In this document: in pieces, positions 1-33,514 of the stretch
Numbering within the stretch: position 1 is the stretch's first letter
How the letters are laid out: every line of letters begins with the position of its first letter
From: Anaerolineae bacterium
GTDB lineage: Bacteria; Chloroflexota; Anaerolineae; B4-G1; DUEL01
Length of the DNA: 64,000 bases
Reading direction: 5' to 3'
Assembly: GCA_041082215.1 (NCBI GenBank)
Contig: JBDOIF010000093.1
Coordinates: 5,504-69,503 of the forward strand
Position numbers and translations under genes: made by a program
Notes under the pieces: model-generated
Seen by the model: the letters and a program-made list of their open reading frames with translations, nothing else
Database searches by the model: none
Told to the model about the DNA's origin: nothing

Positions 1-485
1 GGGTAGACCTCCCCCAGCCCCAGGGCGTAGAACTCCACCGACGCCTCACGCATGCGGGGGCTTTCCGCCTTGTTGGCTGCGACAAAGACCGGCTTCTGGG
101 AGCGACGGAGGATATCCGCCACCTCCATATCGGCGGGGGTCAGCCCCGCTGTGGCATCGGTGAGGAAGATGACCGCATCCGCCTCGCCGATGGCCAGCTC
201 CGCCTGGGCGCGGATGAGGGGGATAAAGGCCGCGGAGTCCTCCGTCAGCGGCTGCTCCGGCCCCGGACGGATGCCCGCCGCCACTTTCTCCGGCAACACC
301 TCGATGCCGCCGGTGTCCACCACGGTAAAAAGGACTTCGTTCCATTCGCAGGGAGCCTGCAACCGGTCGCGGGTCGTCCCCGGCCGCTCGTCCACCACCG
401 CGATCCGCTGGCCCACCAGCCGGTTGAAGAGCGTGGACTTCCCCACATTGGGACGCCCCACCAGCGCGACGATCGGCCGTTTCAT
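1..485 (-). CDS. der: GTPase Der/EngA, N-terminal part (gene continues beyond window start)
   Basis: Minus-strand translation begins MKRPIVALVGRPNVGKSTLFNRLVGQRIAVVDERPGTTRDR (P-loop G1 of Der). The ATG at 485 overlaps the stop of the upstream gene. Confidence 0.85.
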   Translation of the reverse strand, partial: MKRPIVALVGRPNVGKSTLFNRLVGQRIAVVDERPGTTRDRLQAPCEWNEVLFTVVDTGGIEVLPEKVAAGIRPGPEQPLTEDSAAFIPLIRAQAELAIGEADAVIFLTDATAGLTPADMEVADILRRSQKPVFVAANKAESPRMREASVEFYALGLGEVY

Positions 486-1732
486 GGAGACCTCCTGGGA
501 GTTGGCGTCGGTTCCACCCGGACCTCTACCTGAATGGTGGAGGGGAGAACCGACTGGGCCGTCACCCCTGCCGGCACCGCCACCACCTTCGGCTCGACGG
601 AGTGGCTGCCGGGGTTCAGGCCAAACAGGTCAACGATCACCCGCACGTCCTCATCCTTGAGCTGGTCCAGCACCGGCAGCGGCCCGCTGAGGATGACCTG
701 TACGGTCATCGGCGCGACGGTGGCGGTTATGCCCGGCTGGGCGAGCCCCTGAACCTCCACTGGCCGTTCTACCGTCAGGCTCCCCACCAGCGGCTCGACG
801 AAAACCCGCACAGCGACGACCGGTTCCTCCATCAACAGGGAAACCCCTTCCGGGACCAGGATGGGTAGCCGCATCTCCACATCCCCCTGCGCCCCCTCCA
901 GATTCAGCGGCTTTGTCTCCAGATAGCCCGGAATCTGGGCGATGAGGTCCGGCGGACCGTATGCCGTCACCACCGGCGGGTTCACGGTGATCCCGGAAAT
1001 GCGGTAGCCGGGGGCCACCTGCCCTTCCAGGAGCGCGGTGACGGCCAGGTCGCGGAAGCCGCTGAGCTGCTCGACCGGCACATAGACCGTAGCCTGGCCG
1101 GGGATGAGGGAGACGTAGGGAACAGGCTGTCCCTCCTCATCGAAGGGTTGGAGGACGAACTCCTCCTGGATGTCGGCCCGTGCCCCGTCCACGGAGACAA
1201 CGGCCACCGCCTCGACCACCCGGGTGACCAGCGAGGCCGGCCCGCTGACAACGACGATGGAGGGGATGACTTCGGGCTGTCGGGCTATATACCCCAGCGC
1301 GACGTCCCCCTCCAGACGCACACGGACCGGCACGGAAATGACCTCCGCCAGTTCCAGGTGGATCAGAATCGTCTCCGGGTCCACCTCCCGCACCATCACC
1401 GGGCGTCGGTCCACTTCCACCTGGACGGGAACCTGATGGGAACCCGGTCCGAGATGGCTGATGTCAGCGACGGCGTGGATCTGCTCAGGCTGGAGGTCCT
1501 GCCAGACCGACTCGGGGGCGCGGAGGGTGACCTGAACCTGGGCGTTCGTCTGCCCGTAGGCGACCATCCCCTCCGGCGGAGCCGAAAGGCGGACGGGGAC
1601 AGGGGAGGAGTATCGCCGCTCGATGGTGGGGTTTCCCTGTTCCACAGCCGCCAGCCAGACCAGCAAGGCCAGGATCAGAGAGAGGAGGAGCAATCCCAGA
1701 TTGCCGATCAGCCACCGGAATGCGCGCCTCAT
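482..1732 (-). CDS. cdaR: YbbR-like domain protein (CdaR-type regulator of diadenylate cyclase)
   Basis: An N-terminal TM helix is followed by repeated beta-rich modules. It sits directly downstream of cdaA with a 4-nt start/stop overlap. Confidence 0.65.
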   Translation of the reverse strand: MRRAFRWLIGNLGLLLLSLILALLVWLAAVEQGNPTIERRYSSPVPVRLSAPPEGMVAYGQTNAQVQVTLRAPESVWQDLQPEQIHAVADISHLGPGSHQVPVQVEVDRRPVMVREVDPETILIHLELAEVISVPVRVRLEGDVALGYIARQPEVIPSIVVVSGPASLVTRVVEAVAVVSVDGARADIQEEFVLQPFDEEGQPVPYVSLIPGQATVYVPVEQLSGFRDLAVTALLEGQVAPGYRISGITVNPPVVTAYGPPDLIAQIPGYLETKPLNLEGAQGDVEMRLPILVPEGVSLLMEEPVVAVRVFVEPLVGSLTVERPVEVQGLAQPGITATVAPMTVQVILSGPLPVLDQLKDEDVRVIVDLFGLNPGSHSVEPKVVAVPAGVTAQSVLPSTIQVEVRVEPTPTPRRSP

Positions 1733-2565
1733 CTCATCCCTCCGAAGCGGGCCAGCCAGCGTTGCAACCAGGAGGGCCAGAAGGACTCCAGCACAGGCTG
1801 ATGAAAGGCCAGAAGCACCCGTTCCAGCCGTTCAGGGTTCAGGTCGCGGATGATGCGGCCGTTGTGGGTGACCGATATAGCCCCCCGCTCCTCAGAGACG
1901 ACGACGCCGATGGCATCGGTCTCCTCGGTGATGCCCAGCGCAGCCCGGTGACGCAGCCCCAGCCGTCGGTCATCGAGGAACGCGGTGGAAAGGGGGAGGA
2001 CGCAGGCAGCGGCCAGGATCCGCCCGTTACGCAGGATAACCGCCCCGTCGTGGAGGGCCGTATGGGGGTCGAAGATGGTAACGAGGAGTTCCTGGGAGGT
2101 CTCCGCATCCAGCCTCACCCCTGTCTCGGCGTATTCCTGGAGGCCGGTCTCCCGTTCCAGGACGATGAGCGCCCCGATGCGGCGCTGGGAGAGGAGCCGG
2201 CAGGCCTCCACAACGGTGGATAGGGTCTGCTCCAGGGAGGCACGCTGTCCGGTGGGCCGGCTGAGGAGGGAGCCAGCCCGACCCAGCCGCTCCAGCGCCC
2301 GGCGCAGCTCCGGCTGGAAGATGACCGGTATCGCCACCAGGAAAGCAGGGAGGGCGCGCTCCACCAGCCAGCCGAACGCCCGGAGCTGGAACGCGCTCTC
2401 CAGGATGGCCAGAAAGATAATCAGCAGGATGATCCCCCGCAGCAGAGGGACTGCCCGGGTTCCCCGCACCAGGTAGAGGATAGCGAAGAAGATCGAAGCG
2501 ACCAGCAGGATGTCCAGCAGGTCGGTCCAGGTGATGCGCTCGACGAGCCACAACAGGTCAACCAC
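1729..2565 (-). CDS. cdaA: diadenylate cyclase CdaA (DisA_N/DAC domain, 3 N-terminal TM helices)
   Basis: DAC motifs are visible (TRHRAALGITEETDAIGVVVSEERGAISV). The ORF-track N-terminus (to 2853) runs into a repeat element and is not coding. A GTG at 2565 is preceded by GGGAGG. Confidence 0.8.
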   Translation of the reverse strand: MVDLLWLVERITWTDLLDILLVASIFFAILYLVRGTRAVPLLRGIILLIIFLAILESAFQLRAFGWLVERALPAFLVAIPVIFQPELRRALERLGRAGSLLSRPTGQRASLEQTLSTVVEACRLLSQRRIGALIVLERETGLQEYAETGVRLDAETSQELLVTIFDPHTALHDGAVILRNGRILAAACVLPLSTAFLDDRRLGLRHRAALGITEETDAIGVVVSEERGAISVTHNGRIIRDLNPERLERVLLAFHQPVLESFWPSWLQRWLARFGGMR

Positions 2566-2618
2566 CTTCAGCCTCCCTGGAATAAGTATACCATAGAGTG
2601 GGACAACTCGCACAGGTT

Positions 2619-2810
2619 GGGCGTATTTCAATTTCGGGGCGAGTGGTCCTCTCGCTCGCCGGTGGATCGCGAATCCCACGAATGGCCCGAATACAGCGAA
2701 CAGGAGGGATACCTGCTCCATTCGCGGTATTCGTTTCCACTTGCGCCATTCGTGTTTCCCCAGGTCCGGCCCGGGCCAGGGACATCTTGCCCCCAAACTG
2801 AAATACACCT
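2619..2810. mobile_element. MITE-like element copy A (about 190 bp, imperfect 21-bp TIRs GGGCGTATTTCAATTTCGGGGC / GCCCCCAAACTGAAATACACC, flanked by CACAGGTT duplication)
   Basis: It is about 85% identical to 31433..31624 and shares TIRs with 22760..22929. Eight of nine bases of the flanks are duplicated (gCACAGGTT / tCACAGGTT). Confidence 0.6.
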
Positions 2811-2900
2811 CACAGGTTATCCTACTTGCCCTTTCTACCTTTTTGTAGTACACTTAATATATAGAAACCAGAACCCGCCAAGGAGGTCAACGCAGTATCC

Positions 2901-3932
2901 ATGGCAGCCCAGGAAGGACGTAAGAAGGCATTAGAGGCGGCGCTGGCGGCGCTGACGAAACGGTTTGGGGAAGGGGCGGTGATGCGGTTGGGAGAGGCCA
3001 CCCACCTTACGGTGGAGGCCATCCCCACCGGCTCCCTCTCCCTGGATATCGCTCTCGGCGTCGGTGGCATCCCCCGGGGCCGCGTCACGGAGATTTACGG
3101 CCCCGATGGGGCGGGCAAGACCACCCTTGCCCAGCATATCGTCGCTGAGGCCCAGAAGCGGGGGGGCGTTGCCGCCTATATAGATATGGAGCACGCCCTC
3201 GACCCGACCTATGCCGCCGCCTGCGGCGTAGATGTCGAAAACCTCTACATCGCCCAGCCCGACACCGGGGAACAGGCCCTTGAGATCGCCGAAACCCTCG
3301 TCCGCAGCGGAGCCGTTGACGTCGTCGTCATTGACTCTGTCGCTGCCCTCGTTCCCCGCGCGGAGATCGAGGGGGAGATGGGGGATTCCCACCCCGGCCT
3401 CCAGGCCCGCCTGATGAGCCAGGCGCTCCGTAAACTCTCCGGAGCCATCAAGCAATCCAACACGGCTATGATCTTCACCAACCAGCTCAGGGAAAAGATC
3501 GGGGTGATCTTCGGCAGCCCGGAGACCACCACCGGAGGCCGGGCGCTCAAATTCTACGCCTCCGTCCGCCTCGACGTCCGCCGGGTGACTACCATCAAGG
3601 AGAAGGGCGAGGTGATCGGCAGCCGCACCCGCGTGCGGGTGACGAAGAACAAAGTCGCCCCCCCCTTCCGGGTGGCGGAGTTCGACATCATCTACGGCCA
3701 GGGCATCAGCCGGGAAGGGGACGTCCTCGACCTGGCAGTGGAGTACGGCCTGATCGAAAAACGGGGATCTTATTTCAGCTACAGGGGAGAAAACATAGCC
3801 CAGGGACGGGAGAACGCTAAGGTTTACCTCCGCGACCACCCGGAGGTGATGGCCGACATCGAGGCCCTTATCCGCGAAAAGGCCTTCGAGGTCCCTCCCC
3901 CCCTCCCCACCGAAGATGTCGAACCGGCCTGA
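2901..3932 (+). CDS. recA: recombinase RecA
   Basis: Walker [14 protein letters not shown], the L1/L2 regions and a full-length match to the RecA architecture. An RBS GGAGG lies upstream. Confidence 0.97.
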
Positions 3933-22991: not shown

Positions 22992-24332
22992 ATGGAGTTC
23001 GACTGGCAGGAAGTCACGGAAGAAGCGGTCCGATACCTGCAGGCGTTACTGCGTATCAACACGACGAACCCTCCCGGCAACGAAAAGGCAGCCGCCGATT
23101 ATCTGGCGGAGATCCTTTCTACCGAGGGGTACGAGCCGATCGTGCTGGAATCGGCGCCGGGCCGGGGGAACGTCGTCGCCCGATACCGGGGCAGCGGGGA
23201 ATCCCCACCCCTGCTGCTCCTTTCCCACCTGGACGTGGTGCCGGTGGAGCCCGCATACTGGGAGCACGATCCCTTCGGCGGTGAGATCGTGGACGGGATG
23301 ATATGGGGCCGCGGGGCGCTGGATATGAAGTCCATCGTCGTGATGCAGTTGATGACGATGCTGCTCCTGGCCCGTGGGAAGGTCCCCCTGGCCCGGGATG
23401 TCATCTTCGCCGCGACCGCCGACGAGGAGATGGGAGGGAAGTACGGGGCCGGGTTCCTGGTCAACCACCACCTCGACCTGATCCGGGCCGAGCACGCCCT
23501 GAGCGAGTTCGGCGGCTTCCCCATCGAGCTGGGAAGACGACGGATCTACCTCTGCCAGGTGGCGGAGAAGGGGATCTGCTGGGTGCGGATGCGGGCGCAG
23601 GGGAAGCCAGGCCACGGCTCGACCCCCCATCGGGATAACGCTGTGGTGAAACTGGCCGAGGGTGTGGCCAGGCTGGGACGGGCCGACCTCCCCTTCCACC
23701 GCACGGAAGCCGTGGCGGAGATGTTCCAGGGGATGGCCCGCGGCCTGGGCGGGGTACGGGGAACCGCCCTCCGGTTGCTGCTCAACCCCTTCCTCAGCTC
23801 CATCGTCCTCGACCTCCTGATCCGCGACCCCCGGCTCAGCGGCTACTTCCGCGCCCTGCTTCACAACACCGTCTCCCCCACCGTCCTGCGGGCAGGCGGC
23901 AAGACCAACGTCATTCCCTCCCAGGCGGAGGCGGAGCTGGACGGACGGCTCCTGCCCGGACAGGACCTGGAGCAGTTCCTGGCCGAGGTGCGGGCAGTGG
24001 TGGGGCCTGGCTTCGAGTTCGAGCCGATCGAAGTAGCGCCGCCGGTGGAAACCACCAGCCGGACCCCCCTCTTCGAGGCGATGGCAAAGGGGCTGCGGCG
24101 ACATGACCCCGGGGCAGCCGTCGTGCCGATGATGATGGTCGGTGGAACCGACGCCAAGCACCTGGCCCGCGCCGGTATCCCTTGCTACGGCTTCTCCCCG
24201 ATGCGCCTGCCACCGGATATGGACTTCCTGCGCATGGCCCACGGACATAACGAGCGCATCCCCGTAGATGCCCTGGCCTTCGGTGTCCAGGTCCTGTACG
24301 AGGTTGTGACGGATTTCTGTTTCAGGAGGTGA
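22992..24332 (+). CDS. M20 family metallopeptidase (ArgE/DapE/ACY1/CPG2 family)
   Basis: HLDVVPV, GRGALDMKS, E-E general-base region and a dimerisation domain. A -10 TATAAT lies at 22970. Confidence 0.85.
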   Translation: MEFDWQEVTEEAVRYLQALLRINTTNPPGNEKAAADYLAEILSTEGYEPIVLESAPGRGNVVARYRGSGESPPLLLLSHLDVVPVEPAYWEHDPFGGEIVDGMIWGRGALDMKSIVVMQLMTMLLLARGKVPLARDVIFAATADEEMGGKYGAGFLVNHHLDLIRAEHALSEFGGFPIELGRRRIYLCQVAEKGICWVRMRAQGKPGHGSTPHRDNAVVKLAEGVARLGRADLPFHRTEAVAEMFQGMARGLGGVRGTALRLLLNPFLSSIVLDLLIRDPRLSGYFRALLHNTVSPTVLRAGGKTNVIPSQAEAELDGRLLPGQDLEQFLAEVRAVVGPGFEFEPIEVAPPVETTSRTPLFEAMAKGLRRHDPGAAVVPMMMVGGTDAKHLARAGIPCYGFSPMRLPPDMDFLRMAHGHNERIPVDALAFGVQVLYEVVTDFCFRR

Positions 24333-24470: not shown

Positions 24471-24499
24471 TTGACTTCTCCGTCACTGTGTGTTATACT
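24471..24499 (+). promoter_or_regulatory. sigma70-type promoter TTGACT-17-TATACT with TGn extension
   Basis: ttgacttctccgtcactgtgtgttatact. It sits immediately upstream of the cobalamin riboswitch. Confidence 0.7.
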
Positions 24500-24504
24500 C
24501 TCCC

Positions 24505-24700
24505 CGACAACTGAATACGGCCTCGACAGAGGTGCCCCAAAGCCCGGATGTGAGGGGCACAAAGGGGGAAGACCGGTTCAAGTCCGGCGCTGTCCCGCAA
24601 CTGTAGGGACACGATTTGTCCGTGTCCAAGCCAGGATACCCGCCTCTGTCGGCGCCCACGCAACCTTCGCGGAAAGGGGGTGGCGCATGAAGGGCAAACA
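24505..24700 (+). promoter_or_regulatory. cobalamin (B12) riboswitch aptamer
   Basis: GGTGCCCC...AAGGGGGAAGACCGGTTCAAGTCCGGCGCTGTCCCGCAACTGTAGGGAC matches the conserved B12-element core (AAGGGAA-GGTGnAAnTCC...GCTGcCCCCGCAACTGTAA). Confidence 0.85.
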
Positions 24701-24710
24701 GACCTGCCAG

Positions 24711-24746
24711 GCCCTTCCCCGAGTAACGTGAGGGGAAGGGCTTTTT
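24711..24746 (+). terminator. intrinsic terminator (riboswitch expression platform)
   Basis: GCCCTTCCCC-gagtaacgtga-GGGGAAGGGC followed by TTTTT. Confidence 0.8.
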
Positions 24747-24857
24747 CAATAACCACCACAGAGACGCAGAGGACACGGAGGGAACCCGGTTACAGGAAAC
24801 TCCGTGAGCCTCATCTCCTTCGCATCTCAACGGTGAAGCATCTATGAGGAGGAAACT

Positions 24858-25946
24858 ATGTCCCGCGTATTCGTGGCGAGTGGACTCGCCCTGATCTTGC
24901 TTGCAGGTTCTGTCTTCCCGGCCTTTGCCAGCGACCCGGTGGGAACAGCGCTGGCTTATCTGGCCGCCCAGCAGCAGCCCGACGGTGGCTTCACCAACGG
25001 CTTCAGCGCCGGTTCCGACCTGGGCACTACCTGCGATGTGATCCTGGCCATAGCTGCCGCCGGGCAGGATGTCAGCACCTACCGCTCCTCCAACGACCGC
25101 TCGCCGCTGGACTACCTGGCCGCCCAGATAGCAGCCGGAGCAACGGAAAAAGTGGGCATCAAGGCTAAAGTGGTGCTGGCCCTGCTCGCCGCCGGGCAGG
25201 ACCCCGCCAGCTTCGCCGGCCACGATCTGCTGGCCGAACTGGAGGCCGCTTACGACGCGGAGAGCGGCAGCTACGGCTCCAATATCTTTGACCAGGCGCT
25301 GGTGATGCTGGCCCTCTTCAACGCCGGCCGACCAGTGCCGGAGGGAGCGGCCCAGTACCTGCTGGATAACCAGTGCACCGACGGAGCCTGGGCCCTCTTC
25401 GGCGGCACAACCCCCGGCACGGGCGACACCAACACCACCGCCCTGGCCATCCAGGCCCTCCTGGTCACCGGCCACCGGGACGACATCGGCACGGCCTTCG
25501 CCTACCTGCAGCGAGTCCAGAACACCGACGGCGGCTTTCCCTACCAGAACCCCTCTCCCTACGGCACCGACACCGACGCTAACTCCACCGCCTACGTCCT
25601 CCAGGCGCTGCTGGCAGCCGGCGAACCGCTGGGGAACTGGACCCCGGCCGGCACCGATCCGGCGGGGACGCTGGTCAATCTGTACGACCCCACCAGCGGG
25701 GCCTTCTTCTGGCAGACGGCCTATCCCTTCCCCAACGTCTCGGCCACTGCCCAGGCGATCCCCGCACTGCAGGGGTACACCTTCGTGAACCTGCCCCGGG
25801 TGGGCGCGACCATCGCCCCCCAGGCAGTGTCCACCATCCCCCTGCTGCCGGAGACCGGCGGGGCGGCTGGCTTGCCGGTAGCCCTCGGGGTCGCTGGTGC
25901 AGCGATGATCGGGGTGGGCCTTGCCCTGCGCCGCCGTGGCCGGTAG
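24858..25946 (+). CDS. secreted prenyltransferase/squalene-cyclase-like (alpha/alpha toroid) repeat protein with C-terminal LPXTG sorting signal; candidate cobalamin-binding alpha-domain protein
   Basis: Signal peptide; repeated QxxDGGF/W-type motifs (QQQPDGGF, NQCTDGAWALF, VQNTDGGFPYQ, DPTSGAFFWQ); C-terminal LPETGG followed by a hydrophobic stretch and RRRGR. It is the first gene after the B12 riboswitch, with AGGAGGA 7 nt upstream. Confidence 0.8.
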   Translation: MSRVFVASGLALILLAGSVFPAFASDPVGTALAYLAAQQQPDGGFTNGFSAGSDLGTTCDVILAIAAAGQDVSTYRSSNDRSPLDYLAAQIAAGATEKVGIKAKVVLALLAAGQDPASFAGHDLLAELEAAYDAESGSYGSNIFDQALVMLALFNAGRPVPEGAAQYLLDNQCTDGAWALFGGTTPGTGDTNTTALAIQALLVTGHRDDIGTAFAYLQRVQNTDGGFPYQNPSPYGTDTDANSTAYVLQALLAAGEPLGNWTPAGTDPAGTLVNLYDPTSGAFFWQTAYPFPNVSATAQAIPALQGYTFVNLPRVGATIAPQAVSTIPLLPETGGAAGLPVALGVAGAAMIGVGLALRRRGR

Positions 25947-26772
25947 CAAACGGGCCTGCAGGGGGGCGCGATACGTCGCCCTCCTGGTCGCTGGGGCGCT
26001 GCTCGTCGCCAGCCCGACGGCGGCGCAGGAGCCGCCCCATCGGGCCGGCCTGGTGGTGGTCCACGGGGACGGGCGGGCGGTCACCCGCTGCGTCTCCTTC
26101 GCCGAAGAGGCCATCACCGGAGTTGACCTGCTTCGCCGCTCCGGCCTCTCTGTGACCCTGTCCGCCTTCGGTGGGCTGGGATACGGCGTCTGCGCGATAG
26201 ACGGGGAGGGGTGCCAGGCCGAAAACTGTTTCTGCCAGTGCCAGGGGAGCCCCTGCGCCTACTGGGTCTACTCCCATCGCCAGCCGGATGGCTCGTGGGC
26301 CATCTCCGGCGTGGGGGCCAGCTCCTGGCAACTGCGGGACGGCGATGTGGACGGCTGGGTGTGGGGGGACGGGTCTACCGCTCCCCCACCCCTCCCCTTT
26401 GAGGCCATTTGCCCGGAAGATGCCGCTCCGCCTCCGACAGAACAACAGCCATCCCCGACAGCCGCCGGGTCTCCCACCGCACCGTCCACCCCACCCCCAT
26501 CGCCGACACATGCCATCGCCACCGCCACCCCTGCACCGCCCTCCGTCACAGCTACCCCAACCACCCCGCCAGGCCCCAGCCCGACCGTCCCCCCAACCCC
26601 CAATCCAACCATCCTCCCTACCCCCACGGACCGGCCTCCCGTATCCTCCCCCACCCCAACCTCCCAACCGGCAGCCGCTTCCGGTGTCTCTCCTGCCGGC
26701 TATGCCTTCTTCGGCCTCTTCACCCTGGGGCTGGTGGGCTTGCTCCTCTACGTCCTTTTGCGGCAAAAATGA
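25921..26772 (+). CDS. secreted Cys-rich DUF4430-like domain protein with Pro/Thr-rich stalk and C-terminal TM anchor; candidate cobalamin-binding beta-domain protein
   Basis: A signal peptide is followed by a globular domain of about 100 aa (CVSFAEE...GEGCQAENCFCQCQGSPCAYWVYSHRQPDGSWAISGVG...WQLRDGDVDGWVWGDGS), a long PT-rich linker and a C-terminal TM helix. It may start at TTG 25921 or GTG 25936. Confidence 0.65.
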   Translation: MPCAAVAGSKRACRGARYVALLVAGALLVASPTAAQEPPHRAGLVVVHGDGRAVTRCVSFAEEAITGVDLLRRSGLSVTLSAFGGLGYGVCAIDGEGCQAENCFCQCQGSPCAYWVYSHRQPDGSWAISGVGASSWQLRDGDVDGWVWGDGSTAPPPLPFEAICPEDAAPPPTEQQPSPTAAGSPTAPSTPPPSPTHAIATATPAPPSVTATPTTPPGPSPTVPPTPNPTILPTPTDRPPVSSPTPTSQPAAASGVSPAGYAFFGLFTLGLVGLLLYVLLRQK

Positions 26773-27569
26773 AACTCCGAAGCGCGATCTCCGGTTCCAT
26801 CTACGGGCTGAGTGCCGTCCTCGGCATCCTGGCCTTTCTGTACCCCTTCTTCCTCCACAGCCAGACGGCGGCTGCCGTAGGGCTGGCCCACAGCCAGGAC
26901 GCGCCGCTGGTGACGACGATGCTGGTGGGGCTTTCGCTGCTGGCCCTGCTGGTGGAAATGGAAGGGGAAGCGCTCAGCGCCAAGACGGTTGCCCTGCTGG
27001 GTGTGCTGGTCGCTCTCACCAGCGCCCTGCGCTTCCTGGAGGTCGCTTTCCCGATGCCCGGCGGCTTTTCCCCCATCTTCGCCTTCATCATCCTCGCTGG
27101 CTATGTCTTCGGCGGGCGGTTCGGCTTCCTGATGGGCGTGTTTACCCTGCTCGCCTCCGCCCTGATCACCGGAGGGGTAGGCCCCTGGCTTCCCTACCAG
27201 ATGTTCACTGCCGGCTGGGTCGGCCTCACGGCCGGCTGGCTCCCACGCAAAACCCAGCACACGACGCGCTCCATCCTCCTTCTCTCTATCTTCGCCTTCG
27301 CCTGGGGCTTTCTTTACGGCGCGGTGATGAACCTCTACTTCTGGCCTTTCGCCGTGGGGCCGGCCGGGCAGAGCTGGCAACCAGGCATCGGGCTGAAGGA
27401 GACCCTGGCCCGTTACGCCGCCTTCTACATCGTCACTTCGCTGGGATGGGACCTGATGCGGGCATTGGGGAACTTCGCCCTGATCCTGCTCCTGGGAGCG
27501 CCGGTGGTCCGGGTGTTCACCCGCTTCCGGCACCGCTTTCACTTCGAACTGGAGGCCAGCAATGGTTGA
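26769..27569 (+). CDS. polytopic membrane protein, probable ECF-type substrate-capture (S) component
   Basis: 267 aa with about 7 TM helices. It lies directly upstream of, and overlaps, the EcfT-A-A' fusion, and sits in the B12 riboswitch operon. Confidence 0.55.
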
Positions 27570-30330
27570 TGTGCGGGCCTGGCTTCTCTGGGCGCTGACG
27601 GGGACGGTGATCGCCTCCTCCACCCGCAACCCCCTCTATCTCTTCCTTCTGGTGCTGACGATCGCGGTGGTGGGCGCGGCCCGGCCATCCGGCTCCAGGC
27701 GGAAGCAGGCCCTATCCTCCCTCCGCTTTACAGCGGCAGCCGTCCCTCTGGCCGCCCTGTTCAACGGCCTGACCGCCCACATCGGCGATACGGTCCTTTT
27801 CCACCTGCCTGCCCGACTCCTGCTGATCGGCGGGCCGGTGACGGCGGAAGCCCTCATCTATGGGGCGATCAGCGGCCTCACACTGACCACAATTCTGAGC
27901 GCTTTCGCCGTCTTCAACCAGGTGACGCCGGTTCACGAACTGGTGGGCCTCACCCCACGCGCCCTGCACGAGACCGGCATCATCCTCTCCATCGCCCTCA
28001 CCTTCATCCCCCAGACGGGCCGCAGCCTGACCCGTATCCGGGAGGCCCAGGCTGTGCGCGGCCACCGCCTGCGGGGACTTCGCGGCTGGCTCCCTATCCT
28101 CATTCCCCTCCTGGTGAGCGGGATGGAACAGTCTATGGGGCTGGCCGAGGCGATGGTCGCCCGCGGGTACGGCTCCGTTTCGGACCGGGACCATTCCACC
28201 CGCACACGGGGGCTGCTGGCCCTGGGACTGCTCGGCGTGCTCGGGGGGTGGCTGGGGATGCTTTTCCTCCCTGCCTGGAAGTATGCTGCGCTGGTCGGGT
28301 TGCTGGCCGGCGGCCTTCTCGTCATCAGCGCACTGTGGCTGGCAGGACGGGCCGCTCCACGGACCGCTTACCGCCCCAGGCGGTGGACCCCTCAGAGCAC
28401 GCTGGTCGTTCTGGGCTGTGGGGCGGCGCTGGCTGCGGTCCTGTTGCCCTGGCCCGGAGCCGAAACGGCAGCCTATACACCCTACCCCAGCCTCACCCTC
28501 CCCCCCTTCGACCCGGCTGTCGGGCTGGGCCTGCTGGGGCTGCTGATGCCAGCACTGGCTGCAGAACGGCGACCTGCACGAGAGGAGGCCCGGGGACCGG
28601 TCCGTTCCTGCGCTCCTGTGACCTCATCCCCTTCTCCTGCGAGGAAAGGGGGAGGGAACGGGGATAAGGTCTCCAGACCCCTATCAGATGCCCCCTTCAT
28701 CCAGTTCAGCCGGTTCACCTATACTTACCCCCAGGCCCTCCACCCTGCCCTCTCCGGGGTGAACCTCCGCATTGAGGAAGGGGAATTCGTGCTGGTGACC
28801 GGCGTCTCCGGTGCAGGCAAGTCCACCCTGCTGCGGGCCCTCAACGGCCTGGTTCCCCACTTCAGCGGGGGGAAGGTGCAGGGCCACGTCTCCGTCGCCG
28901 GGCACAGCCCCGCCGTAGAAGGGCCGCAGGTGCTCAGCCGGGTCGTCGGCTTCGTCTTTCAGGACCCCGAGGCCCAGTTCGTCGTGGATCGGGTGGAGGA
29001 CGAGATCGCCTTTGCGCTGGAGAACCTGGCCCTCCCCCCTGCCCAGATGCGCCTGCGGGTGGAGGAGGTGATGGACCTCCTGGGGCTTACCCCACTGCGG
29101 GATCGGCCGCTGGAGAGCCTCTCCGGAGGGGAGAAGCAACGGGTCGCCATCGGCGCAGCCCTGGCCCTCCGCCCCCGCGTCCTCGTCCTGGACGAACCCA
29201 CCTCCCAGCTCGACCCCTGGTCGGCCGACGAGGTGTTGCAGGCCCTGGTGCGCCTGAACCGGGAGCTGGGCCTCACCGTTATCCTGGCCGAACACCGGCT
29301 GGAGCGAGTCCTCCCCTACGCGGACCGGCTGGTCTACCTGCCGGCCCCCTCGGAGGGGAGGCGGCGGAACGGGCGGGTGCTGAGCGGCCCACCCCGCCAG
29401 GTCCTTCCCCGGATGGAGCTGACGCCGCCGCTGGTCACCCTGGGCAAGGCTCTGGGCTGGGACCCGCTCCCCATTACCCTGGAGGAAGCGCCAGCGACCA
29501 GCGGCGAGCTACGGACAACCAGTAACCAGCAACCAGCAACGAGCTACAGGCAACCGGCAACCCTTCTCCGCATACGGGGGCTTTCTTTCAGCTACGGGGC
29601 CACCCCAGCCCTGCGCGGTGTGGACCTGGAGGTGGGGATGGGAGAGCTGGTGGCATTGATGGGGCGCAACGGCTCCGGCAAGACCACGCTGCTGCGATGC
29701 GTCGTGGGGCTGCTGCACCCTTCAGGGGGAGAGATCGAACTGGAAGGTCGCTCTCTTGTGGGGCTGGACCCGACCCGCATTTGTCGGCAGGTGGGGTATC
29801 TGCCCCAGGAGCCGGACGATCTGCTCTTTGCCGAGACGGTGGCAGAGGAACTGGCCGTCACCCTGCGCAACCACGGCCTTCTCGACCGCCCGCCTATCTC
29901 CCCTGCTACCCTGCTGGAGCGCCTGGGGCTGGGGGGTGTGGCGACGGCCTACCCGCGCGACCTGAGCGTTGGCCAGCGGCAGCGGGTAGCGCTGGGGGCG
30001 GTCACCGTCACCCGGCCCCGGCTCCTGCTCCTGGACGAGCCAACGCGGGGGATGGACTACCTCGCCAAGCAGGGACTGGTCCGCCTGCTCCGGGAATGGC
30101 AGGCGGAGGGGGTCGGTGTCCTGCTGGTGACCCACGATGTGGAGCTGGCAGCTCAGGCAGCGGACCGCGTGGTGGTGCTGGACCAGGGGGAGGTGGTCGC
30201 AGCGGGCCCCCCATCGGAAGTGCTTTCCGGCCCCTCCCTTTTCGCCCCCCAGATCGCCCGGCTCTTTCCGGGCACGGGCTGGCTGACCGTCGAGGAGGCG
30301 CTGGCAGGGCTGGCTAGGGGGAGTGGATGA
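27562..30330 (+). CDS. triple fusion EcfT-EcfA-EcfA' (ECF transporter T component fused to two ABC ATPase domains), 922 aa
   Basis: An N-terminal CbiQ/EcfT membrane domain of about 230 aa is followed by a Pro-rich linker. NBD1 carries [17 protein letters not shown] and VLDEPTS. NBD2 carries [17 protein letters not shown] and LLDEPT. Confidence 0.85.
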
Positions 30331-31960: not shown

Positions 31961-33514
31961 ATGGGAAAAAAGAGCGGGCTATGGACCGTTGCGGTTGCGG
32001 CGGTGCTTGTTCTGGGGACCCTGTCGGGATGGGCAAATGCAGCGCCGTCGCTCCAGGGGACGGGAGAGAACCTGCTGAAGAACCCGGGGTTTGAGGGGCT
32101 CACCTGCAACCCGGCCTCTCCGCCGGGGTGGTGCTACGATAACTGGACCCGCGATACCTACAACGGGATTCCCTATGGGGAGATCTTCACTCCACAGGGA
32201 TGGGTCACGTTCTGGAGCGAGGGGACGAACCCGGCAGATGGGCGGAAGTACGGTCGGCCGGAGTGTAAGGTCATCCCCAAGCAAGCCCCCTTCCTGGGCC
32301 CTCCGGCCCGCATCCGCAGCGGGAACTACGCGATCATGCAGTTCGGTTTCTTCCGCGCCATTGACTCCGGCGTGTACCAGGTCGTCACCGGGCTGACGCC
32401 CCACGCCATCGTCCAGGCCTCCGCCTATGCCCACGCCTGGGCCTGCGGCGACGACGAGCACGGGGCCTACTCCTGCGGCGAGCCGTATCAGATGCTCTTC
32501 CGCGTCGGCATAGACCCCAACGGCGGCACCAATCCCTGGAGCCCGACCGTCATCTGGGCCAGCGGCTACTCGTACGACGAGTACCGCCTCATCGGCCCGG
32601 TGCAGGCCGAGGTGGGCGATGCTGGCACGGTTACCGTTTTTCTGCGGGCAACGGCCAAGTGGCCCCTGAAGCACAACGATGTCTACTGGGACGATGCCTC
32701 CCTGATCTACGTCACCCCGCCGGCCACACCGACCAACACCCCGCTGCCCCCGCCCCCCACGGCAACGCCCGGCCCCTCTCCCACTCCGCTGCCCACCCCC
32801 ACCCCCCGGCCCGATGGCGCCATCGTCCACATCGTCCAGCCGGGCGACACGCTCTTCGGCATCGCTCTCCAGTACGGCGTGCCGATGGAGCAGATTCAGC
32901 AGTTGAATGCCGGCTCCATCGGCCCCAACAATCTGATCCAGGTGGGTCAGGAGCTGGTCATCGCCATACCCTCCGCCACCCCCACCCCGGTTCCGCCCCC
33001 CACTCAGGTGGCAGAGGTCACCGCCACTCCTGCGCCCGCCGAGGTAGGGGCGGTCTGTGTGCTGGCCTACCATGACCGAAACGGGGATACCTTCCGGCAG
33101 CCAGACACAGAAGAGCCATTGCCCAACGCCGTCTTCTCCCTGGGCGATGCGAGCGGCCTTCTGGGGCAATACACCACCGACGGCCTGAGCGAGCCCTACT
33201 GCTTCACCGGGCTGGCCCCGGGCACCTACCGGGTGGCCATGCAGCCGCCAGCGGGCTATGTGGCCAGCGGGCCTTCCGACATGGCGCTCGCAATGGGCAC
33301 AGGGGGAGCGCTGGAAATAGCTATGGGGGCCAGGCGAGGCGAAGCACCGGCCACACCCGAAGGGTCGGAAGTGGTCCAGCCGGAACCCACAGAGGAGGCC
33401 ACCTCGGGCCTGCCGCTGGTGCTCCGCCGGGCGGCCGGCGTCAGCGGCATCCTGCTTCTGGGGCTGGCACTGGCAGTGGCCGTCCTCTTCGTCCTCTCCC
33501 GCCTGCGACGGTAG
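31961..33514 (+). CDS. secreted multidomain protein: carbohydrate-binding-like N-terminal domain, Pro/Thr linkers, LysM domain, SdrD-B/Cna-B-like domain, C-terminal TM anchor
   Basis: Signal peptide; NLLKNPGFE... beta-sandwich region; LysM (IVHIVQPGDTLFGIALQYGVPMEQIQQLN); a VCVLAYHDRNGDTFRQPD...GTYRV region; hydrophobic C-terminus followed by RLRR. Confidence 0.75.
   Translation: MGKKSGLWTVAVAAVLVLGTLSGWANAAPSLQGTGENLLKNPGFEGLTCNPASPPGWCYDNWTRDTYNGIPYGEIFTPQGWVTFWSEGTNPADGRKYGRPECKVIPKQAPFLGPPARIRSGNYAIMQFGFFRAIDSGVYQVVTGLTPHAIVQASAYAHAWACGDDEHGAYSCGEPYQMLFRVGIDPNGGTNPWSPTVIWASGYSYDEYRLIGPVQAEVGDAGTVTVFLRATAKWPLKHNDVYWDDASLIYVTPPATPTNTPLPPPPTATPGPSPTPLPTPTPRPDGAIVHIVQPGDTLFGIALQYGVPMEQIQQLNAGSIGPNNLIQVGQELVIAIPSATPTPVPPPTQVAEVTATPAPAEVGAVCVLAYHDRNGDTFRQPDTEEPLPNAVFSLGDASGLLGQYTTDGLSEPYCFTGLAPGTYRVAMQPPAGYVASGPSDMALAMGTGGALEIAMGARRGEAPATPEGSEVVQPEPTEEATSGLPLVLRRAAGVSGILLLGLALAVAVLFVLSRLRR

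Follow-up and report, generated by a model that had tools for sequence, protein, structure and literature searches.

A predicted split transcobalamin-like corrinoid capture pair encoded with an ECF importer in a cobalamin riboswitch operon of Chloroflexota

The vertebrate cobalamin carriers transcobalamin (TC), intrinsic factor (IF) and haptocorrin (HC) are extracellular proteins that combine an α/α toroid with a small β-grasp domain. A bacterial counterpart was predicted in 2007, when Burroughs, Balaji, Iyer and Aravind defined a transcobalamin-like clade of SLBB β-grasp domains, which in bacteria come with signal peptides, with anchors of the Gram-positive type and, through fusion, with α/α toroids, and for which a role in the extracellular capture of vitamin B12 was proposed (PMC1796856). 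Here we describe a related locus from an Anaerolineae bacterium of the phylum Chloroflexota (GenBank assembly GCA_041082215.1, contig JBDOIF010000093.1, positions 5,504 to 69,503; this whole 64-kb stretch of DNA is hereafter the window), in which four consecutive open reading frames (ORFs), ORF1 to ORF4, follow a cobalamin riboswitch. The locus appears to encode a transcobalamin-like capture system split into two proteins, ORF1 and ORF2, accompanied by an energy-coupling factor (ECF) importer that consists of a substrate-capture S component (ORF3) and a fusion of the T component with the ATPases A and A' (ORF4).

The pair resembles the SLBB proteins of the 2007 study in being secreted, in some cases anchored, and in uniting an α/α toroid with a β-grasp domain. 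Those proteins are fused, come mainly from low-GC Gram-positives, and were deemed a Gram-positive innovation (PMC1796856), whereas the present pair is split, belongs to Chloroflexota and is found in the context of a riboswitch and ECF genes. A split arrangement has also been reported by Verplaetse et al. in the lsa1836-1840 operon of Lactobacillus sakei, which encodes ECF S, A-A' and T components along with two separate secreted proteins, and which was ascribed to heme uptake (bioRxiv 10.1101/864751). Its TC β-like (Lsa1839) and α-like (Lsa1840) proteins likewise form a split pair with ECF genes, but no B12 riboswitch was reported there (bioRxiv 10.1101/864751). We infer homology of ORF1 and ORF2 to the L. 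sakei pair from shared fold assignments only. The idea of transcobalamin-like B12 capture in bacteria is therefore not new: it was predicted in 2007 (PMC1796856), and a split pair is on record from L. sakei (bioRxiv 10.1101/864751).

As compared with the vertebrate carriers, the two domains are here encoded by separate genes, each product being tethered to the cell; sequence similarity lies under the family thresholds, and delivery would be to an ECF importer rather than to an endocytic receptor. The vertebrate domain order is shared by a fused relative, P0375, discussed below. To our knowledge, ECF transporters are usually portrayed as operating with no binding protein outside the cytoplasm. 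In Bacteroides, BtuG is a β-propeller lipoprotein that serves a TonB-dependent transporter. BtuG and BtuH are surface-exposed lipoproteins that bind B12 with high affinity and likewise feed a transporter (PMC6143338). ECF-CbrT imports B12 and cobinamide, and the passages of its report on which we draw mention no extracytoplasmic partner (PMC5997447).

The toroid protein and its proposed β-domain-like partner

An original prediction, drawn from the sequence of the window, had presented ORF1 as an LPXTG-anchored α/α-toroid protein, the first gene of a B12 riboswitch operon, and a binder resembling the TC α-domain rather than an enzyme. Its account of the anatomy of ORF1 is borne out. To judge from the sequence, the N-terminus, MSRVFVASGLALILLAGSVFPAFA followed by SD, is organised into n, h and c regions like a Sec signal peptide (residues 1-24), and it has no lipobox cysteine. 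At the C-terminus LPETG (residues 330-334; 25845..25859), GAAGLPVALGVAGAAMIGVGLAL and RRRGR follow one another, with a hydrophobic stretch of 23 residues. The AlphaFold2 model, computed with 38 homologs, has a mean predicted local distance difference test score (pLDDT) of 90.5 and displays a single α/α toroid (residues 27-304), followed by a disordered, LPETG-bearing linker and a helix at the C-terminus.

The sorting signal is the sole one of its kind in the window. Since LPx[TSA]G, the hydrophobic stretch and the basic tail are kept in 114 of 120 ORF1 homologs, within a linker that is otherwise variable, their conservation argues that the signal is in use. The commonest motif is LPESG (59/120), and the family mostly possesses LPxSG or LPxAG instead of the canonical LPxTG, a preference that may reflect a sortase class of unusual specificity in Chloroflexota. 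Motif scans for sortase-like ORFs of the TLxTC type recovered none in the window or in 80 related loci (906 kb of related loci); one 2006 paper reports a single sortase-like protein in Chloroflexus.

The strongest support for a binder is provided by a feature that the original prediction missed, namely the β-domain look-alike of ORF2, which in relatives is fused to the toroid. ORF2 comprises a signal peptide, a domain of ~130 residues (26032..26424), a Pro/Thr-rich stalk of ~90 residues and a C-terminal transmembrane helix (26692..26766). The domain contains eight conserved cysteines (exactly eight in 86/120 homologs) and is modelled with a pLDDT of 85-97. Its ten best Foldseek matches in the PDB are all TC, HC, IF or 3u7z (E = 2e-4 to 1.5e-2), with template modelling scores (TM-scores, target) of 0.60 against 5no0, the isolated human TC β-domain, and 0.72 against 3u7z, a small bacterial protein. 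Generic ubiquitin-like and superantigen β-grasps come later, at E values of at least 0.04. On the strength of these models, ORF2 appears to be a TC β-domain look-alike with a β-grasp fold of the TC/IF/HC type. A search of PDB sequences with the ORF2 profile recovered nothing relevant.

The sequence of the toroid itself lacks the acid motif of the cyclases. ORF1 matches Pfam SQHop_cyclase_N (32.5 bits; gathering threshold 26.2) and SQHop_cyclase_C (30.6 bits; gathering threshold 26.1), and Prenyltrans PF00432 at 20.4 bits, under its cutoff of 26.5. At the level of sequence, we take the two cyclase matches to show homology of the toroid repeats and not enzymatic identity. In a profile alignment with squalene-hopene cyclase (SHC) the invariant D190-T-N192-T193-T-A of ORF1 lies opposite SHC D374-V-D376-D377-T-A, so that N192 and T193 face D376 and D377; the aligned stretch is weak (5.5 bits) and its six-residue register exact. 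The degenerate motif occurs again in ORF1 as D240-A-N-S-T-A. Neither DxDD nor D.DD[TS]A is present in any of the 120 homologs, all of which have D.N[ST]TA, and DDxxD was not found in ORF1, in agreement with the absence of intact cyclase motifs claimed at the outset. No cysteine or histidine is invariant among 38 aligned homologs, and hence there is no prenyltransferase-type Zn site; the list of invariant residues also has no histidine corresponding to TC His173. The invariant positions, ~45 in number and with several Asp, Asn and Gln among them, cluster at the motifs that start the inner helices and in a QNxDGGFPYQ loop, not in the linker. Moreover, ORF1 consists of one toroid of ~280 residues, not the two-barrel (β-γ) architecture of the cyclases, and is extracytoplasmic by its signals, whereas the cyclases are cytoplasmic or monotopic in the membrane. 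Given the motif loss, the missing Zn site and secretion, an isoprenoid enzyme is very unlikely. A thioester (TED-like) reading was also considered and dropped, CxEQ being found in 0/120 homologs.

Both proteins can be related to families named after Streptomyces genes, SCO2321 (NCBIfam NF053823) and SCO2322 (NCBIfam NF040672; Pfam PF28005), ORF2 only weakly. ORF1 scores 122.3 bits (E = 2.2e-35) against SCO2321_fam, with an equivalog cutoff of 300; on this score it is homologous to the SCO2321 family yet outside the curated equivalog. ORF2 attains 18 bits (E = 0.0026) against SCO2322_fam, with a cutoff of 85. By their consecutive numbering SCO2321 and SCO2322 should be neighbours in S. coelicolor. 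Our literature search found nothing functional on either of them, and the scores of ORF1 and ORF2 lie far under the equivalog cutoffs.

ORF1 has many relatives: a 90%-clustered database yielded 1,117 matches, and a profile search of a 50%-clustered library recovered 9,304 clusters at E values up to 1e-3, 761 of them at up to 1e-30. Members of this large family bear database names such as "cell wall anchor protein", "LPXTG-motif cell wall-anchored protein", "terpene cyclase/mutase family protein" and "prenyltransferase beta subunit". The best 80 relatives belong to Anaerolineae, Thermoflexales, Ardenticatenia and Chloroflexia, including Herpetosiphon aurantiacus DSM 785 and Chloroflexus. Many relatives have 2-4 tandem toroids (among P0241-P0388, for example, P0243 with 1786 residues and P0339 with 2052), and some of these multi-toroid proteins, which are large and extracellular, add PKD, CWB2 (cell-wall binding) or lamin-tail domains.

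Riboswitch linkage and pairing among relatives

The riboswitch of the window matches the full Rfam model (positions 1-189; gathering threshold 31.5), and its aptamer ends 196 nucleotides before the ORF1 start codon. A one-genome-per-species scan identified 273 relatives of ORF1, of which the best 80, all from Chloroflexota, were taken as loci. In ten of ten diverse loci Rfam placed a riboswitch of the cobalamin clan closely upstream of the toroid gene. A covariance model that we built from these ten and ran on the 80 loci then found a same-strand riboswitch in 75; in 73 it lies 0-500 nucleotides upstream of the start as estimated, and the median distance is 143 nucleotides. Four of the five loci without a match have at most 250 nucleotides of upstream sequence. 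The linked homologs range from Anaerolineae to Chloroflexus and Herpetosiphon, and the association with B12 control, originally proposed for the single gene, thus extends to its relatives. In one Chloroflexota metagenome-assembled genome (L008:2134-2284) a cobalamin riboswitch inside the cluster separates the ORF2 homolog (1360-2088) from the S-component homolog (2476-3219). Upstream of the toroid gene just 198 nucleotides are covered, and this locus may have two riboswitches.

Downstream of the toroid gene, 64 of the 80 loci carry a homolog of ORF2. Furthermore, a hidden Markov model (HMM) of the ORF2 domain, constructed by us and run on 148 representative ORF1 relatives, recovered a full-length ORF2-like domain fused to one or more toroids in 22 of them. 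One, P0375 (492 residues), has the toroid at 12-307 followed by the β-domain at 323-449, which is the transcobalamin order and the one such case; in P0283, P0284, P0286 and others the β-domain is placed ahead of the toroid. The β-like domain of the fused relatives carries the precomputed Pfam assignment PF28005 "SCO2322". A Pfam scan of 37 representative relatives uncovered no known β-domain fusion, the fusions being visible only with the ORF2-domain HMM. Each of the four fused-gene loci that were examined has a cobalamin riboswitch (40-75 bits) directly upstream of the gene, with ECF genes on its downstream side. Because of this fusion, adjacency and shared regulation, we argue that the toroid and the β-grasp act as one unit.

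The composition of the locus varies across the phylum. L028 has the toroid and T-A-A', with no ORF2 or S gene nearby, and the Herpetosiphon locus contains the toroid, an ORF2-like gene and the T component only. In Chloroflexus sp. MS-G (L068:6929-11406) the riboswitch is followed by the toroid, an ORF2-like gene, a His_Phos_1 (CobC-like) gene, CobS and a CbiQ-type T component, an order that agrees with that from Sun et al. No S or ATPase genes were seen in the Chloroflexus loci among the scanned ORFs of at least 150 residues. With cobS and a CobC-like gene close by, the pair in Chloroflexus may take part in salvaging incomplete corrinoids. In three further Chloroflexus loci (L069, L076 and L079) the riboswitch and the toroid-β pair likewise precede the CobC-like phosphatase, CobS and the ECF T component.

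Two additional arrangements were encountered. The closest relative in the genome collection (76% identity; L002:6947-12023) possesses the riboswitch and the toroid without ORF2 or ECF genes downstream; its toroid gene is followed by genes for a VIT/VWA protein and a DUF3048 protein, and it is possibly a stand-alone second copy. At L085:1065-5778 a single riboswitch operon encodes a single-toroid protein, P0283 (a β-like N-terminus plus toroids), a 435-residue SCO2322-family protein and CbiQ, so that one locus holds a stack of several capture modules; after it come genes for a DNA methyltransferase and for a restriction enzyme of the CfrBI type.

Operon layout and neighbouring genes

In the window the riboswitch and the four genes, whose ends overlap (by 4 nucleotides for ORF2 and ORF3), constitute one unit, and the gene downstream, a glycosyltransferase, is convergent. 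ORF1 is the first gene of the operon, as had been claimed, because the four end-overlapping genes come after the riboswitch. The features are collected in the table.

Features of the B12 riboswitch operon, in window coordinates
Feature	Position	Strand	Details
Promoter-like site	24471..24499	+	TTGACT-17 nt-TATACT with TG extension; consensus match only
Cobalamin (AdoCbl-type) riboswitch aptamer	24513..24661	+	RF00174, 75.8 bits, E = 7e-17
Terminator-like element, putative expression platform	24711..24746	+	GC-rich stem of 10-12 bp, GCCCUUCCCC / GGGGAAGGGC, 11-nt loop, then UUUUU
ORF1	24858..25946	+	362 aa; ATG start with GAGGAGG ahead; signal peptide, toroid, linker, LPETG, hydrophobic segment, RRRGR
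ORF2	25936..26772	+	GTG start at 25936 (278 aa) or TTG start at 25921 (283 aa)
ORF3, ECF transporter S (substrate-capture) component	26769..27569	+	PF07155 46 bits, PF12822 43 bits
ORF4, fused ECF T component and EcfA-A'	27562..30330	+	PF02361, 2x PF00005, TIGR04520

The promoter-like site fits the consensus at 10 of 12 positions, and two such sites were found against 0.1 expected in shuffled sequences. A segment between the aptamer and ORF1 (24662..24760) has a minimum free energy fold of -40.9 kcal/mol (z = -2.5), and the hairpin within it would serve as the expression platform of the riboswitch. A scan for consensus terminators reported none, the loop limit of the scanner being 8 nucleotides as against the 11-nucleotide loop that folding showed.

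ORF4 contains a CbiQ domain (residues 3-205; PF02361, 47.5 bits) and two ABC ATPase domains (PF00005 twice, 196.6 bits), and matches the NCBIfam model TIGR04520 (ECF_ATPase_1) at 346 bits, above its cutoff. The operon thus holds S, T, A and A' together, which is the hallmark of a dedicated (group I) ECF transporter. ORF3 has no sequence match at E values up to 10 to solved S components, including CbrT, and therefore its substrate specificity cannot be read from its sequence.

Several neighbouring genes deserve mention. An M20/M28-family peptidase gene adjoins the B12 operon both in the window (22992-24332, + strand) and in Herpetosiphon aurantiacus (L081:11910-13097, - strand), which could be coincidence or conserved synteny. 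The gene at 31961-33514 (+ strand), 1.6 kb past the operon, encodes a secreted protein of 517 residues with LysM and SdrD_B-like domains and Pro-rich linkers; its C-terminal hydrophobic segment ends in RLRR without an LPXTG motif, making it another wall-associated surface protein. At 482-2853 (- strand) the diadenylate cyclase CdaA (DAC domain) is followed by a YbbR-domain protein, the usual pair of cyclic di-AMP synthase and regulator. The window also contains housekeeping genes for RNase Y, topoisomerase I, DprA and SRP54.

Proposed function, rival readings and significance

We consider it probable that ORF1 is the α-domain-like half of a split transcobalamin-like corrinoid trap at the cell surface. 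We infer that the pair binds corrinoids, that ORF1 and ORF2 form a complex, that the ligand is handed to the S component and that a sortase processes ORF1, in the following scheme. At low intracellular adenosylcobalamin the riboswitch would permit read-through of the terminator-like hairpin, and the four translationally coupled genes would be made. ORF1 would be exported by the Sec pathway. Through LPETG a sortase would attach it to peptidoglycan; failing that, its C-terminal helix would at least keep it at the membrane. ORF2 would also be exported and held in the membrane by its own C-terminal helix, presenting the small Cys-rich β-grasp domain atop the Pro/Thr stalk. A face of the toroid and the β-grasp domain could then close around a single corrinoid, be it cobalamin, a different cobamide or cobinamide, much as the two domains of TC do (PMC1796856), and pass it to ORF3 for import by ORF4. 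The original choice of a binder over an enzyme is supported by the motif loss, the lack of an invariant Cys or His and the riboswitch linkage, and remains a prediction.

A number of results weigh against this proposal. By sequence the toroid is nearer to the repeats of squalene-hopene cyclase and drimenyl-diphosphate synthase than to TC. Against Cobalamin_bind (PF01122) ORF1 scores 21.5 bits (cutoff 25; E = 1.3e-4), over residues 290-316 only, and a sub-profile of residues 180-318 recovered only cyclases and the β subunit of geranylgeranyltransferase, with no TC or IF. Its top Foldseek matches in the PDB are the single-domain cyclase-like 8pak and 8paj (E ~1e-8 to 1e-7), and, judged on the models, a toroid fold search by itself does not discriminate an enzyme from a binder. 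ORF2 has no match in the local Pfam library, and 29 of its homologs have none at E values up to 10 save low-complexity noise. Some loci, such as L028 and L002, have a toroid and no ORF2 homolog, and there the toroid may act alone or with an unrecognised partner. Our literature search turned up no report of a bacterial member that binds cobalamin, and heme is the ligand assigned by the authors of the L. sakei study (bioRxiv 10.1101/864751).

The likeness to the TC α-domain accordingly stands in fold and fails in sequence. Rat, human and bovine transcobalamins (8ixu, 7qbe, 4zrp, 2bb6 and 2bb5) match the ORF1 model at E = 2e-7 to 1.4e-5, with TM-scores (query) of 0.47-0.54; they are interleaved with cyclases, drimenyl-diphosphate synthase and prenyltransferase β subunits, which match equally well. 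A precomputed PF01122 match is present in 9 of 120 homologs, and a search of the PDB with the ORF1 profile reached IF at E = 0.7 only. Membership of ORF1 in the PF01122/transcobalamin family was dropped, the sub-threshold Pfam score and the profile and sub-profile searches giving it no support. A transcobalamin-like way of working is supported; membership in the transcobalamin family is not.

Of the rival readings, that of ORF1 as a surface enzyme, be it a terpene cyclase/prenyltransferase relative, a glycan-active (α/α)6 enzyme or an extracellular corrinoid remodeller, appears most improbable to us. It could draw on the SQHop_cyclase matches above gathering, the cyclase-like best fold matches, the polar residues among the ~45 invariant ones and some (α/α)6 hydrolases far down the Foldseek list (rank 47). 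Yet in all 120 homologs the catalytic DxDD is replaced by DTNT, the Zn ligands are absent, and there is one toroid only, in an extracytoplasmic location where isoprenoid diphosphates would not be expected; the fusion of toroids to a ligand-binding β-grasp, together with the coupling to an importer, suits capture rather than catalysis. It is also unlikely, if to a lesser degree, that ORF1 is a scaffold or shield that does not itself bind the transported ligand and, for example, serves in the wall as a dock for ORF2 or for the S component, or that the operon imports cobalt. The TC toroid provides much of the B12 pocket (PMC1796856), and the invariant residues of ORF1 map to the inner-helix starts and the QNxDGGFPYQ loop rather than to the linker. 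B12 riboswitches do govern cobalt transporters as well, and ORF4 has a CbiQ-family T domain and CbiO-like ATPases; however, CbiQ is the Pfam name for all ECF T components, and ORF3 belongs to PF07155/PF12822 and not to the CbiM/CbiN type. The occurrence of ORF1 without ORF2 at some loci speaks for the scaffold.

The capture of heme or another tetrapyrrole instead of corrinoids, as proposed for the Lsa1839/Lsa1840-ECF system of L. sakei, is highly improbable here. In L. sakei deletion led to less heme uptake, and heme could be docked between the α-like and β-like proteins (bioRxiv 10.1101/864751); the lack of detectable similarity between ORF3 and the B12-specific CbrT is also compatible with it. 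What counts against heme is the cobalamin riboswitch at 73/80 split and 4/4 fused loci, a signature of the supply of B12, cobalt or B12 precursors and not of iron or heme, as well as the company of cobS and a CobC-like phosphatase in Chloroflexus and the cobalamin carriers that make up the fold relatives of ORF2.

In our preferred reading, that of a surface corrinoid trap, the locus represents the same kind of system as those described before, in another phylum, and the riboswitch argues for corrinoids as its ligands. A wider proposal, which we hold with somewhat less than even confidence, is that the locus stands for a large family that departs from the usual picture of ECF transporters; that monoderm bacteria of several phyla use a two-piece, ligand-closed corrinoid clamp, with an α part fixed to the wall by a sortase-type signal and a β part on a long, flexible membrane stalk, that feeds an ECF S component; that animal transcobalamin and intrinsic factor would be its fused descendant; and that such a pair would predate, and be more widely distributed than, the innovation in low-GC Gram-positives put forward by the 2007 study. 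The result is incremental rather than surprising, and its value resides not in a new principle but in a testable surface-capture stage and in the correction of a widespread annotation. The scavenging of B12 at very low concentrations by bacteria without an outer membrane is poorly understood. If the pair binds corrinoids, ECF importers would gain a surface capture stage, thousands of "terpene cyclase/mutase" or "prenyltransferase" annotations would need revision, and genes of the Chloroflexi B12 regulon so far identified only by locus tags (Cagg_2179/78, Haur_3809) would acquire a function. It would then also offer a simple, expressible two-protein system in which a bacterial origin of transcobalamin and intrinsic factor could be tested.

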